40,212 nucleotides of DNA from a virus (lineage: Duplodnaviria; Heunggongvirae; Uroviricota; Caudoviricetes): the IMG/VR virus record IMGVR_UViG_2541047498_000018; one strand, written 5' to 3'. The number at the start of each line of letters is the position of its first letter. Position 1 is the first letter of the stretch. The position numbers and the translations under genes were made by a program. Of this stretch, positions 608 through 5,426 are shown piece after piece. The notes beneath the pieces are model-generated. The model saw nothing but the letters and a program-made list of their open reading frames with translations, searched no databases and was not told the DNA's origin.

Positions 608-1345
608 TCATTCACTCTCTTTCAAACCAGTTTTAACTGTTTGTGGTTTTGGGTAAGGCTGGACTTTGAATAGCTTTGTGTTGAGGCGTTTTCTGGCCCT
701 CTTGTTCAGAAACCGGATGTAACGAAACTGTCGGAACTTATGAACACTGGCTCTGTCAATATTAGCCCTCAGATGTTCACCTCGTTGTCCGCCTCGTTTA
801 ATGGCATTCCTGCAAATCTCGTGATACCACTCGCCATCAAGTTCATAGAATATTGATTCATGGCTGCCTACATAATCAAAATTGCTTGCCTGATACACGA
901 CACCAAGACAGCCACAACGCTCATCTGCAAACGACTGAACCCACTGTACCTGCGGATAAAGCTGCCTGATTAGCTTGAGCGCGTAACTGATTGCCCTTGA
1001 TTCGGAGTTTCTCGGCATACAGTCATGCAGCCATAGCCGGTTAAGCTCCATATATTCTCGGTTCTGCGTACCCGTTACGACGCGTGCACCACTGTTTGGG
1101 TTAAGGGCGTAACCCCATTGCATTACGCCAACAAGTTCCCGTTCTGAAAATATGCCCAGATGAAGGTAGGAGTTATTTACGAAACGGTGGCTGTAATGTT
1201 TATTGACGATGACCAGTCTGGCCAGCCAGCAACTTATTGTCTCAACCCGCAACTCACGGGAGCCATAACCAACGATATTGTCGTTATAGCGAATAAGTTC
1301 AGGCGTGCTGATGATTCGGGATGTGACTTGCTTTCTGTTCCCCAC
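608..1345 (-). CDS. mom: DNA modification protein Mom (adenine modification, antirestriction)
   Basis: 245-aa ORF as the last gene before the prophage end. Its 5' end overlaps the 3' end of the upstream Com-like zinc-finger gene, as in Mu. True start may be an internal codon. Confidence 0.8.
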
Positions 1346-1499
1346 GACAGGATTTCCTTGTGTATGTGGGGTGCTCTGTGGCGCTCGGAGATGTGATTTG
1401 ATTGAGGGTTTTACAGCGCGGACATTTTACTTCCAGATAACTGAAACTGGCCCGTGCCAGTAGCTTATTGCAGTGTCGGCACCGTATGTTTCGATACAT
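1299..1499 (-). CDS. com: Com, zinc-finger translational activator of mom
   Basis: Translation [14 protein letters not shown]...EVKCPRCK has the C4 zinc-finger pattern of Mu Com. ATG at 1499 is preceded by AGGAGG 9 nt upstream on the minus strand. The track ORF starts further upstream at a TTG at 1544. Confidence 0.85.
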
Positions 1500-1546
1500 G
1501 ACCGCATAACCTCCTGCTTTGTTGTTGATGCCTTTCTCATGCAATC

Positions 1547-1685
1547 GATCGACAAAAACGATCGATTCGATTTGTTTAATTGATACAACAAATAGATTGA
1601 AAAGTCATCAACAATGATTCAGGGAGGTGATTATTTACTTAAAGAAAACGAAGAGTTAGGTGGTGAAAACGATCATAAAATGATC
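1547..1685 (-). promoter_or_regulatory. Upstream regulatory region of com-mom with a cluster of four GATC (Dam) sites
   Basis: GATC at 1547-1550, 1560-1563, 1671-1674 and 1682-1685, within about 190 bp upstream of com. Mu Pmom is known to be controlled by Dam methylation of upstream GATC sites (OxyR binding) and by C protein. Confidence 0.5.
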
Positions 1686-1771
1686 ATTTTATTGACTTTT
1701 TATACAGTGAAGGTAGGATCACGCGTATATGTAGTATGTTTCAAATCAACAGGATACTACATAAAAGTGAA

Positions 1772-1799
1772 ACCCAGCATAGCTGGAACTATGCTGGGT
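1772..1799 (-). terminator. Candidate rho-independent terminator for minus-strand transcription leaving the cargo module
   Basis: Perfect 11-bp inverted repeat ACCCAGCATAG / CTATGCTGGGT with a 6-nt loop. On the minus strand it is followed by TTCACTTTTAT. Confidence 0.4.
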
Positions 1800-2116
1800 C
1801 AATCTGTAAAAACTTGCATCAATGCTTTACTTCGAGCTCGTGGCGTATCCTATGATATTCCCCGGTCTCCTGTAAAGCAGAGATGCATAAAAAGGAGATC
1901 TTTATCATGGATGAAAGAGCCTGTTTGCCCTGCCTGTAAGACTCCCTTACAGCTCATCTATCGCCGTTCTCGATCTCAAAATGGCAAGACATACAAACCC
2001 AAAAATGCTTCCTGTTTCAGGATGCTGATATGTCCTGCCTGTTCTCCCAGGAGGGAAAATACACAAAACGTGCATTAACAAACTCACCCGGCAGGGAAAC
2101 CTGCCGGTCGGTATTG

Positions 2117-2362
2117 TTACATCATAGTACCGTCAGTTCCGGGCTGAACCGGCTCTGGTTGCTCTACGGGTTGAGGATCATTTTCCGTGCTGTTTTCAGC
2201 CGGAGAACGGCCAACCATTCGGGCCAGCACTTCATCAACATATGCGTCGATTTGTGCCTCAAAATCCTTGCGAACCTGCGCCTTCAGCACGCGGTTCACT
2301 TCTTCAGAATAAAGTGCCTGTTTGACAAGCTCTTCAGTAACCGTGCCTTTAATCTCTGGCAT
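2117..2362 (-). CDS. Hypothetical protein (81 aa, acidic, Pro/Glu-rich C-terminus), cargo module
   Basis: ORF co-oriented with and downstream of the esterase gene. No family recognised. Confidence 0.4.
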   Translation of the reverse strand: MPEIKGTVTEELVKQALYSEEVNRVLKAQVRKDFEAQIDAYVDEVLARMVGRSPAENSTENDPQPVEQPEPVQPGTDGTMM

Positions 2363-2397
2363 GAATATTCTCCTTTTGCAGGTATATTGCCCCGTTA

Positions 2398-2580
2398 TCA
2401 GAGCGGGGTCGGGTCGTTTGGGGATGACGGTGCCTGTGCTGTTTTACTGAGTTTTTCAGCTGCCGCATCATCAATTTTACGGCGAATATAATTTCTGATG
2501 ACCTTATAACCACCGCTCACCAGATATAACGCACTGACCACAGCGCAGAAATAAAGCAGCATTGTATGAACGAATGTCAT
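2398..2580 (-). CDS. Hypothetical small membrane protein (60 aa), cargo module
   Basis: N-terminal hydrophobic segment LLYFCAVVSALYLVSGGY followed by a basic stretch. Co-oriented within the cargo module. Confidence 0.4.
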   Translation of the reverse strand: MTFVHTMLLYFCAVVSALYLVSGGYKVIRNYIRRKIDDAAAEKLSKTAQAPSSPNDPTPL

Positions 2581-2726
2581 ATAACCTTACCTTTGATATT
2601 GACTACATAATTCGTTATCGGGTAAAAACATCGAAGCGACTGATAACCACTCCTTCGGGAGTATTTTTATTTTCCTTTATGGGTTAGGTAGCTCCCGCCA
2701 GCCATATCATGACCGGCGGGATTTTT

Positions 2727-4766
2727 TTATTCTGTTACCGCTTTTTTCACTTCCACCACAATGCTGTCAATCAGCACCGGGTAAGTTGCATTTTTTGTGA
2801 TATCCGTTACGCGGAGTTTGTCCACCGGGAAAGTTCCTACTGGTGACTGCGTCAGGGTAAACGCGGCACCATCCTGACCATCAATAACCGGAATAACCTG
2901 AAGGCTGTTATTTCCTGCAAAACGGAAGGCCAGCGTATGCCATTCATTATCAAATGCACCAAAGGTTCCCAGTTTCTGGTTATTTGTTGCCACTTTTGCA
3001 TTGTGGTACATCACATTCAGGTCTTTTGCGTCTGTCTGGATGTAGAACGATGCCAGCAGATTATTCCCTGCATCCCCTGTCAGGGTGACACCCTGCGGCA
3101 GAGAGGAAACCGGCCAGTAAAGCCCCATGACATACTGGTTTGCCACCAGGTCGCCAGGTACTTTAAAACGACAACTGATTAAACCACCATTTTTCAGCAG
3201 TTCAGCACCAGTACCGGCATCATGATCCAGATACCAAGATGATTTACCTGTTTCCTTGGTCAGTTTCATTGCCTTACCACCTGTGCCTCCTGCATCACTG
3301 ATAATTTCAGCTTTACCGCCAGCCGGCTCCCAGCCCTGGGCTTTCAGATTTCCTTCTGACTCACTGACACGATAAGACAGCAGTGTTGTGGTTACTGCTT
3401 CAGTTTCTGAAGGTGACGGCACTGGTGCTTCAGTTTCAGAAGATGGAACATCGGCTTTTACTGTGGTTCGCCCCGCATGAGTCAGAACTGCCGTGGCCAG
3501 ACGGTCGGAAATAATCCCACGACGTGCCCATGAACTGAAATGGCTGGCCCGGTCCGCAGATGTCCAGGTGGCGGCACTGTTACGCCACGTTGAGCCGTAA
3601 TAACCAATGGATTCAATATCCGGGTCTTCTGCCGGATTGTTGGTGGGTACATTCGCGTCATTTTCATCTGTCATTAATGGAACGAAATGAATGTTTTTAT
3701 CTGTTTTGTTTTTGTAGCCGCCATAGATTGCCTGGTATGCCGGTTCATTTTTCTGTTTCCAGAAATACGTGGTATCGCCACAAATCCACGGAACGCCAGC
3801 AGCACTGCCACCGGTACACTGTTCCGCCTGTTCAGCCAGGTCTGCGCGGAATTTTTCCACCATCGCCAGAAACAGCGCGGAATGCTCCGTCGGCTTCGCA
3901 TCAATATCAAACTCGCCCTGCATCCACACCACAGCAAGCAGGCGGTTTTTCGGGTTCTTCGCCAGTGCCGCTTTTGTCCGGCTGATTAAGTCCTTATACA
4001 GCGGCTTATCCACACCCCAGCGGGCTGAGTCCTCTGAAGCACCCGTGCTGTCACTGTACGTGCCGTCAGCACCCGCCGTGAATGCAGAACCACCACGGCA
4101 GCAGGGAACCAGCAGAATCCCCGCATCTGCCGGAATAAACGGCAGCAGTTTTTTGGCAATGTGAAGCCCCTGACCCACGGTGCCATATTGCCCTTTAGCC
4201 ACATCCGCTTTCGGGTGATTTTTTCCACTCATATCCTGCACATCATGCAGACAGTGGTCGGCCAGAATGATGTCGTTATACTGACAGGCTTTACCTCCCG
4301 GCGTGACTGTACTGCGACGGGCTAACTGCATAATACGCGGTTCGGGGCGGTCATATGTCTCCGGCAGTGGCAGACCTTCACCGTAAGCCATACCGTTTGA
4401 CTGACCAGCAAGAACCACCACGTAATACCAGGAAGGGGAGCTGGAAGCAGTTTCATTTCCTGACGGACGGGTATGTGTTTCAGCATTATCCCAGTCTGAC
4501 GGTTCAGCAGTACCGGCAACATCAGCACTTAACGGAATGACCGCACCAATACCCGCTCCGGTAATTTCCACACTCGGATCACCGGATACTGGCCTTACCC
4601 ACAGGCAATCCCGTGTATTAAAACTGATGAGACAGTCAGCAAATGTCATTCCTCCTTTTGTTTCGGCCGGAGGAAAGGGAGCCTCAAGAAATGCCGCTGT
4701 ACCACCGGAAACTTTAACAGTAAAGTTTCCGGGCATTGATGATAGTTGAACCCATTTGGACGTCAT
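2727..4766 (-). CDS. SASA/SGNH-family carbohydrate O-acetylesterase (NanS-p-like sialate O-acetylesterase) with C-terminal lectin-like domain
   Basis: 679-aa ORF with VVVLAGQSNGMAYGEG (the GQSN nucleophile motif of SASA esterases), a Ser/Thr/Pro/Glu-rich linker (SETEAPVPSPSETEA) and a roughly 250-aa C-terminal domain. This three-part layout matches prophage NanS-p esterases as recalled. Confidence 0.75.
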   Translation of the reverse strand: MTSKWVQLSSMPGNFTVKVSGGTAAFLEAPFPPAETKGGMTFADCLISFNTRDCLWVRPVSGDPSVEITGAGIGAVIPLSADVAGTAEPSDWDNAETHTRPSGNETASSSPSWYYVVVLAGQSNGMAYGEGLPLPETYDRPEPRIMQLARRSTVTPGGKACQYNDIILADHCLHDVQDMSGKNHPKADVAKGQYGTVGQGLHIAKKLLPFIPADAGILLVPCCRGGSAFTAGADGTYSDSTGASEDSARWGVDKPLYKDLISRTKAALAKNPKNRLLAVVWMQGEFDIDAKPTEHSALFLAMVEKFRADLAEQAEQCTGGSAAGVPWICGDTTYFWKQKNEPAYQAIYGGYKNKTDKNIHFVPLMTDENDANVPTNNPAEDPDIESIGYYGSTWRNSAATWTSADRASHFSSWARRGIISDRLATAVLTHAGRTTVKADVPSSETEAPVPSPSETEAVTTTLLSYRVSESEGNLKAQGWEPAGGKAEIISDAGGTGGKAMKLTKETGKSSWYLDHDAGTGAELLKNGGLISCRFKVPGDLVANQYVMGLYWPVSSLPQGVTLTGDAGNNLLASFYIQTDAKDLNVMYHNAKVATNNQKLGTFGAFDNEWHTLAFRFAGNNSLQVIPVIDGQDGAAFTLTQSPVGTFPVDKLRVTDITKNATYPVLIDSIVVEVKKAVTE

Positions 4767-4865
4767 AATAATCAGCCTGTTCCTGAATAAACTGAATTAT
4801 CATATCCACAGACCGATAAACGCCATTTTGCGTTAATTCAGTAAAGGCCCAACAAAGGGAGCGTC

Positions 4866-5426
4866 TTATTTTTCCGAAACGCTCGCAGGATAATAACGAT
4901 AAAGGGTTGAAAGGCCGATATCAAAAATAAGTGCCACCTGTCTTCGACTGACACCCCCGGCCAGTAAACGCCCGACCTGCTCGTATTGTTCCTGCGTGAG
5001 ACGACGGGGTCTGCCGCCGGTTCGTCCCCTTTCACGGGCAGCTGCAAGACCAGCCCGTGTCCGTTCGACAATTAATTCACGCTCCATTTCTGCCAGCGCA
5101 CCCATTATGTGAAAAAAGAAGCGCCCCATGGGGGTTGACGTATCAATGTTGTCAGTAAGACTACGAAAATTTATCCCCTGTTGCTGTAATTCATCTGTCA
5201 GCGCAACAAGGTGGCGCATACTGCGCCCCAGCCTGTCCAGTTTCCAGACCATCAGTGTGTCACCGGGTTTTAGTTTCTTCAGTGCCCGCTTCAGTCCCGG
5301 CCGCTGTGTCGTTTTACCACTCATTTTATCTTCAAAAATCTGCTCACATCCTGCACATTCCAGCGCATTTCTTTGTAAACCTGTGTTCTGGTCATTTGTT
5401 GATACGCGTATATAGCCAATCAGCAT
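4866..5426 (-). CDS. gin: Gin serine DNA invertase (Hin/Gin/Cin/Pin resolvase-invertase family)
   Basis: 186 aa starting MLIGYIRVSTNDQ (catalytic Ser) with the conserved DRLGRS and GRFFFH...ALAEMERE motifs and a C-terminal HTH. It lies next to a gix-like site and the invertible segment. Confidence 0.95.
   Translation of the reverse strand: MLIGYIRVSTNDQNTGLQRNALECAGCEQIFEDKMSGKTTQRPGLKRALKKLKPGDTLMVWKLDRLGRSMRHLVALTDELQQQGINFRSLTDNIDTSTPMGRFFFHIMGALAEMERELIVERTRAGLAAARERGRTGGRPRRLTQEQYEQVGRLLAGGVSRRQVALIFDIGLSTLYRYYPASVSEK

Follow-up and report, generated by a model that had tools for sequence, protein, structure and literature searches.

A DUF1378–DUF826 gene pair in an esterase cargo cassette of Mu-like and lambdoid prophages

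What do two small genes do that lie directly downstream of a sialate O-acetylesterase gene in a prophage? With NanS-p esterases, pathogenic E. coli use the O-acetylated sialic acids of gut mucus, and the genes for these enzymes adjoin Shiga toxin genes. That a signal-less NanS-p reaches its substrate is usually ascribed to the lysis of a few cells. In this medically relevant cargo region, the small gene pair is a candidate for a helper, timing or exclusion role.

The DNA analyzed here, referred to as the window, is the whole 40,212-nt stretch of the viral record IMGVR_UViG_2541047498_000018. Pfam searches, RefSeq annotation and the prophage map show that it is a Mu-like prophage, carrying MuA, MuB, gam, Mor, lysozyme, spanins, head and tail genes, invertible tail fibres, gin and com/mom. 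The esterase gene and the two small genes have gin (4866-5426) on one side and com/mom (608-1544) on the other; the lysozyme and spanin genes of the same prophage lie about 26 kb away. The genes of this region are as follows.

4866..5426, minus strand: gin-type DNA invertase (Pfam Resolvase 1.4e-51, RefSeq), the upstream border of the cassette
2727..4766, minus strand: NanS-p-type sialate O-acetylesterase, 679 aa (SASA 6.5e-12, C-terminal DUF6645 2.4e-69, phrog_143), the first cassette gene
2398..2580, minus strand: DUF1378 gene, 60 aa (PF07125, phrog_494, RefSeq WP_000144787.1)
2363..2397, minus strand: 35-nt spacer between the small genes, with the AAGGAG of the DUF826 gene at 2370-2375 (read from the sequence)
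2117..2362, minus strand: DUF826 gene, 81 aa (PF05696, phrog_311, RefSeq WP_001114104.1)
1299-1544, minus strand: com (Pfam Zn_ribbon_Com 3.2e-12), at the downstream border of the cassette
608-1345, minus strand: mom (Pfam Mom 4e-77), at the downstream border of the cassette

Beyond mom, at about 500-580 of the window and near the presumed right prophage end, three copies of TTGATAC(C/T) are found, which may be transposase-binding repeats of a Mu-type end, judging from their sequence. The same Mu-like element, with 98.9% identity over the query, is also present in LC727881.1 and LC727895.1, where it is annotated inside the Stx2c- and Stx1a-converting prophages of two strains.

The two small genes and their products

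An earlier, sequence-only reading of the window had proposed two small ORFs co-oriented with the esterase, and the ORF list agrees exactly: a 60-aa ORF at 2398..2580 and an 81-aa ORF at 2117..2362, on the same strand as the 679-aa esterase. Both start with ATG and are preceded by a Shine-Dalgarno sequence, AAGG 4 nt upstream of the start codon in the first and AAGGAG 7 nt upstream in the second. An identical 651-bp sequence is present in 214 of 5426 complete E. coli genomes, in which PGAP annotates the products as 'DUF1378 family protein' and 'DUF826 domain-containing protein'.

The homology searches that the sequence-only reading had called for assigned each protein to a family. The 60-aa protein matches PF07125 (DUF1378) with an E-value of 1.2e-38 (131.5 bits against a cut-off of 25), its residues 1-59 covering 59 of the 59 profile positions, as well as PHROG 494 (3.5e-34); at E ≤ 0.1, Pfam returned PF07125 alone and no holin family. 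The 81-aa protein matches PF05696 (DUF826) over residues 1-52 (2.8e-15, 56.7 bits against a cut-off of 25) and phrog_311 over residues 1-80 (6.6e-30). Among NCBIfam and PADLOC families there were no matches to either protein, and holin, toxin and defence families in Pfam, NCBIfam and PADLOC matched neither of them; profile searches of the PDB gave nothing under E = 0.09. In line with the unknown function stated by the sequence-only reading, PHROG 494 and 311 are both labelled 'unknown function' and the Pfam families are DUFs. The ORFs between nanS-p and S are mentioned in the literature without a function, and a search of the papers covered for experiments on DUF1378 and DUF826 or for their expression yielded bare listings of the families. 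DUF1378, DUF826 and the two proteins themselves are already catalogued, and the original sighting is correct and ordinary: it concerns two DUFs on record rather than a novel type of system. What our analysis adds is the completeness of the pair in intact copies, a cassette common to lambdoid and Mu-like phages, the dispensability of the pair, its constraint and a Pas-like neighbour.

Across related loci we collected 53 distinct coding sequences of DUF1378 and 55 of DUF826, which encode 40 and 48 different proteins. Their pairwise dN/dS amounts to 0.19 and 0.33, respectively, and conservation in related elements, whose absence the sequence-only reading had named as refuting, extends to about 150 loci. 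Within the Mu-like loci alone the values are 0.24 and 0.14 (dS 0.5-0.9). Thus, both small genes are under purifying selection, and the constraint within the Mu-like loci indicates that the pair is kept there without an adjacent holin.

The features that the sequence-only reading ascribed to the two proteins, a single hydrophobic helix with a basic tail and an acidic, Pro/Glu-rich composition, were both recovered. Hydropathy analysis of DUF1378 gives one hydrophobic stretch, with the best 19-residue Kyte-Doolittle window (2.02) at residues 3-21, followed by a basic segment at residues 25-44 (net charge +3; pI of the whole protein 9.3). AlphaFold2 models a single helix over residues 2-48 with a mean pLDDT of 70 and a disordered tail, and dN/dS for residues 1-44 is 0.13. 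DUF1378 is therefore predicted to be a bitopic inner-membrane protein composed of a TM helix (residues ~4-24), a basic amphipathic helix (25-44) and a disordered tail. According to the positive-inside rule, its N-terminus would be out and its C-terminus in, and the basic amphipathic helix would lie on the cytoplasmic face. The protein shares its length, the N-terminal hydrophobic helix, the motif LYL[VL]SGGY[KR] and the place after a prophage esterase with the other members of PF07125 and PHROG 494. No trait distinguishes it from the family, except that the window copy is carried by a Mu-like rather than a lambdoid phage; its protein identity to the Stx-phage version is about 52%.

DUF826 has a pI of 4.34, with 16 D+E and 7 P, and its final 29 residues consist to 83% of P/E/D/Q/S/T/G/N. 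AlphaFold2 places helices at residues 10-17 and 20-50, with a core pLDDT above 90, and leaves the acidic tail disordered; dN/dS amounts to 0.22 over the N-terminal 52 residues, compared with 0.42 over the tail. The protein is thus modelled as a conserved N-terminal helical hairpin (1-52) with a variable, acidic, Pro/Glu-rich disordered tail, as in the other members of PF05696 and PHROG 311, in which the tail likewise varies in length. DUF826 alleles range from 79 to 142 aa, and the tail stays acidic and Pro-rich although its length and sequence vary widely. The window tail is shorter than that of many lambdoid members (81 vs 89-142 aa for the protein), and identity to the Stx-phage version is about 41% at the protein level. 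The family is narrow: a profile search gave 41 matches among 1.84 billion protein cluster representatives, nearly all of them short proteins of the same family and two of them repeat-protein false positives. Foldseek searches with the DUF826 model gave no match in the PDB or BFVD. In most alleles the last residues of the tail (window 2117-2200) are hydrophobic (MM, MMM, ML or LP), and this C-terminus may be a terminal recognition motif.

Two candidate relatives were set aside. YdfR of K-12 (Qin prophage, between essQ and rrrQ), considered as a DUF826 protein, is assigned to DUF1327 by Pfam. An apparent natural DUF1378–DUF826 fusion (P0128), which would argue for a physical complex, comes from a frameshift-ridden assembly whose contig is full of fragmented genes, indicating that the fusion is an assembly artefact.

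The cassette in Mu-like and lambdoid phages

For the analysis of synteny, 153 loci were classified by tblastn, comprising 149 viral contigs retrieved with either small protein and four annotated records. Wherever the contig permits, the order esterase, DUF1378, DUF826 on one strand is found in all 153 loci, and the short gap between the two small genes is kept together with the gene order in all of them. The pair lies directly 3′ of one clade of prophage NanS-p-type esterase genes in every locus sampled, and every intact copy carries DUF1378 and DUF826 together; the sole locus that appeared to have DUF826 only contains a truncated DUF1378. Citrobacter prophages keep the order of the cassette. 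So do the most divergent DUF826 members, which lie beside two different holin families: the S genes neighbouring the pair in relatives match PF04971 or PF16080. We are therefore confident that the two ORFs are real genes that form a gene pair and, with the esterase, a three-gene cargo ('moron') cassette. The identical three-gene order in Mu-like and lambdoid phages also bears out the suggestion of the sequence-only reading that the ORFs are prophage cargo co-transferred with the esterase.

What follows the cassette depends on the phage. In lambdoid/Stx phages, e.g., VT2-Sakai, it is located in the late operon directly upstream of the holin and continues into S-R-Rz, and in Mu-like phages it is flanked by gin before it and com-mom after it. 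From nanS-p to S, the Stx phages 933W and VT2-Sakai match the window in the identity, order and direction of the three genes; their spacers are similar, and DUF826 is likewise followed by a hairpin. In contrast to this region, the window has no holin, endolysin or spanin gene after the cassette and no Q or stx before it, so that its cassette does not occupy the late-operon position between Q (or stx) and the holin and endolysin genes.

The esterase DNA of the Mu-type and lambdoid versions is about 70-80% identical, and the window esterase is 70% identical to that of VT2-Sakai. Judged by this divergence, the two versions are old relatives and not the result of a recent transfer. The DNA similarity between the window and the lambdoid esterases begins only at about position 4430; residues 1 to ~105 of the Mu-type esterase (window 4430-4766, minus strand) are unrelated to the aligned lambdoid N-termini, and Pfam finds no domain on them. 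Citrobacter versions of the esterase have a DUF1737 domain on record.

Several loci carry altered forms of the cassette. In L133 (IMGVR_UViG_2617270951_000022), a gin-type invertase lies directly upstream of the cassette, which is followed by holin, endolysin and Rz; this hybrid suggests that Mu-like and lambdoid phages have recombined via the cassette they share. Rearranged cassettes are found in L041, L060, L049 and L038, in which the esterase has an internal deletion and DUF826 is cut to 63 aa and joined to a C-terminal fragment of another esterase. Recombination has also exchanged alleles without the loss of either small gene, for example in L088.

A search of genome contigs with an esterase profile returned five loci and brought to light a sister esterase clade, which is 53% identical and has the C-terminal region, and in which the esterase is followed by ~170 nt and then the holin. 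Among 80 viral contigs of this clade, six stop at the esterase; none of the 74 that extend past it carries either small gene, and 73 of these 74 have a close relative of the same P21-type holin. The same esterase-holin arrangement without the pair is found in E. albertii. Because the esterase cassettes of the sister clade have neither gene, the pair is accessory and dispensable, and the esterase does not need it.

We also compared allele distances between the genes of the cassette. DUF1378 and DUF826 are coupled, with a Mantel-type Spearman r of 0.56 that was reached by none of 300 permutations. Within the lambdoid loci, the small-gene alleles show a correlation of r = 0.47 and 0.38 with the holin and the weakest one with the esterase (r = 0.21 and 0.13). 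Since the coupling to the holin exceeds that to the esterase, there is no sign of co-adaptation with the esterase, and what ties the pair to the esterase is its presence and location rather than co-adapted alleles. The short distances alone (gaps of ~150 and 35 nt) could hold the cassette together.

The esterase–DUF1378 spacer and possible roles of the pair

The spacer between the esterase and DUF1378 genes folds with z = -2.8 and contains three elements, two of which are oriented against the genes.

2599..2628, plus strand: promoter-like TTGACT-N18-TAAAAA, about 20 nt upstream of the DUF1378 ATG, pointing away from DUF1378 and toward the esterase stop
2649..2673, plus strand: hairpin with a UUCG tetraloop, ACTCC TTCG GGAGT, and a T-run, from the promoter/terminator scan; inside the candidate RNA
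2694..2728, no strand assigned: hairpin CCCGCC...GGCGGG, preceded by A7 on the gene strand and followed by T7 on the plus strand, overlapping the esterase stop

A TTGAC(A/T)-N18-TAAAAA motif occurs in 44 of 50 distinct esterase–DUF1378 spacers, with unrelated intervening sequences; the -10 element of the window is weak, the usual final T being missing. On the plus strand, the hairpin at 2694-2728 takes the form of a putative intrinsic terminator, and alignments show that it is conserved across loci with compensatory changes in the stem. Folding energies by strand (mean -21.4 kcal/mol on the gene strand vs -20.3 on the opposite strand) did not decide on which strand the hairpin acts. At 2694-2720 and in L002, L003, L034, L156 and L157, the stem states A-U, G·U and G-C are observed on the gene strand. 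The G·U pairs of the window allele on the gene strand correspond to A·C mismatches on the opposite strand, and the hairpin may thus also serve the esterase mRNA, e.g., by protecting its 3′ end. The UUCG-tetraloop hairpin is found in Mu-type alleles only and could be an early terminator.

The elements on the plus strand delimit a unit of ~2599-2728 with a candidate RNA of ~95 nt (roughly 2635-2728), which resembles PasA and PasC. PasA and PasC are Hfq-dependent sRNAs of EPEC E2348/69 that were validated by Northern blots (PMC8550237 Table S6; bioRxiv 10.64898/2026.05.13.724894) and are encoded just 3′ of prophage esterase genes, converging on them (PMC8550237 Table S6). The window unit shares with PasA and PasC (EcOnc51/52 in EHEC) the location on the opposite strand immediately 3′ of the esterase and the convergent orientation. 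The Pas promoter reads TTGACA-N18-(T/C/G)A(A/G)AAA and the terminator stem contains GCCAGC; in PasC and in the unit nearest to the esterase, as in the window, the esterase stop directly adjoins the U7 run. In contrast to the Pas loci, the window unit has a weak -10 element and is followed by DUF1378 and DUF826 rather than by a holin. Promoter and terminator align with the Pas loci, and the RNA body is not confidently alignable. Based on this layout and position, the window unit is probably a Pas-type sRNA gene. An Rfam scan of 1400-5000 gave one match at chance level only, and Pas RNAs may be outside Rfam; in the supplementary lists of Tree et al. 2014, the interval from ECs1207 to ECs1208 contains no Hfq-bound feature. 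In prophage PP2 of E. coli E2348/69 (L251, 2267-2713), two tandem promoter-terminator units lie on the opposite strand between esterase and holin; one of them is PasA, and the other borders on the esterase stop, at which the 236-nt minor form reported for PasA ends. The PasA and PasC units (loci L251 and L252) adjoin esterases without DUF1378, indicating that such a unit is not a dedicated antitoxin for DUF1378.

Retention of the pair under selection in two unrelated phage types makes the two genes obvious candidates for a helper, timing or exclusion function. The suggestion of the sequence-only reading that they encode a toxin, a holin-like protein or a superinfection-exclusion factor gained no positive support, given the lack of family matches, the distance to the lysis genes and the sister clade without the pair. 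As accessories of lysis, the two proteins would tune lysis timing together with the pinholin and SAR-endolysin, with DUF1378 as a holin- or antiholin-like protein and DUF826 as a cytoplasmic regulator. In line with this, the lambdoid phages, which account for most copies, carry the pair in the late operon of the holin, as its direct upstream neighbour, and the pair alleles co-vary with the holin (r = 0.47 and 0.38). One TMD followed by a charged C-terminal part is also the general build of some small holins, e.g., T7 gp17.5. We nevertheless consider a role in lysis unlikely: neither protein matches a Pfam holin family, the pair is under purifying selection in Mu-like phages at ~26 kb from the lysis genes, it lies beside two different holin families, and 73 of 74 sister-clade contigs have a close relative of the same P21-type holin and none has the pair. 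Moreover, no endolysin gene adjoins the pair in the window, and in lambdoid relatives a separate holin gene lies between the pair and the endolysin. A superinfection exclusion or defence moron, in which an inner-membrane protein and a cytoplasmic partner would block DNA entry or other phages, appears similarly improbable. The location is a classical moron site, the architecture is like that of small membrane exclusion proteins such as HK97 gp15, and in Mu-like phages gin, a gene that lysogens of phage Mu express, lies upstream of the cassette. However, PADLOC gave no matches, a promoter scan of the gene strand found no more sites than in shuffled sequence, and an independent moron would be expected beside other neighbours as well, whereas the pair was never seen away from the esterase. 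With both T7 gp17.5-like holins and HK97 gp15-like exclusion proteins, DUF1378 shares the general build only (~60 aa, an N-terminal TM helix, a charged C-terminus and an accessory region); there is no sequence-family match, and DUF1378 is always accompanied by the gene for a soluble partner.

The opposite-strand unit in the spacer is also the basis of a type I toxin-antitoxin-like reading, in which DUF1378 would be a membrane toxin whose 5′ leader is covered by a divergent antisense RNA from the spacer. This would fit a 60-aa hydrophobic protein with a single TMD, the conserved TTGAC-N18-TAAAA and terminator on the opposite strand ~20 nt upstream of the DUF1378 ATG, and a layout like that of tisB/istR-1 or zorO/orzO. 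We give it very little weight: the same kind of unit (PasA, PasC) adjoins esterases without DUF1378, the predicted RNA would not cover the ribosome-binding site, DUF1378 is an internal gene of an operon for which no separate promoter is obvious, and its product has a soluble helix that is conserved and a protein partner that is always the same. It is just as hard to view the two genes as conserved passengers without a present function that are wedged between selected elements. Although the families are very narrow (41 representatives of DUF826) and the cassette of the sister clade works without the pair, dN/dS is well below 1 at dS 0.5-1.0 in both phage types, dozens of intact alleles have conserved motifs and ribosome-binding sites, and recombination swaps alleles without losing either gene.

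The reading that we prefer, in which the three-gene cassette includes a membrane-tethered accessory of the esterase cargo, has as a whole an about even chance of being right. In this model, the cytoplasmic, acidic helical hairpin of DUF826 would be tethered at the membrane by DUF1378, the two proteins being of opposite charge (pI 9.3 vs 4.3), and the complex would act for the esterase cargo and not for the lysis machinery, e.g., by bringing the signal-less enzyme to the membrane or by conditioning its release. A physical, membrane-tethered DUF1378–DUF826 complex is a tentative proposal, somewhat short of an even chance. That the role of the pair is tied to the esterase is more doubtful still. 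Such a tie is favoured by the observations that the pair is never found away from the esterase and that Mu-like phages retain it with the esterase and without the lysis genes; it is disfavoured by the sister clade, which lacks the pair, and by the weakness of the allele coupling between pair and esterase. In its most specific form, DUF1378 and DUF826 would be dedicated to docking the signal-less NanS-p-type esterase at the membrane or to helping its export, which we consider improbable. If true, lysogens could deliver or position the esterase without full phage lysis, and the joint move of the three genes into a Mu-like phage, as well as their staying together, would be explained.

The 3′ end of the cassette

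The sequence-only reading had placed the two ORFs before a terminator hairpin, and a hairpin is indeed found downstream of DUF826.

2088..2107, minus strand: 8-bp GC-rich hairpin, CCGGCAGG/CCTGCCGG, 9 nt after the DUF826 stop

It is located between DUF826 and a convergent ORF at 1614-2078 (plus strand), and alignment shows a hairpin at the matching position in other Mu-like and lambdoid loci. The surrounding 76 nt fold at -27 kcal/mol, with z = -4.1 against shuffled sequences. Thus, the hairpin itself is real, but its description as a terminator holds less well: no clean, canonical U-tract follows 2088-2107, and it is absent from the list of a simple terminator scan. It likely marks the 3′ end of the cassette.

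The convergent ORF encodes 154 aa with CxxC...CxxC motifs (phrog_26524, annotated as hypothetical) and varies among Mu-like loci. Inside it lies the strongest terminator-like hairpin of the region on the minus strand (1771-1800), with 13 pairs followed by TCACTTTTAT, which either casts doubt on the extent of the ORF at 1614-2078 or marks the true end of the cassette transcript.
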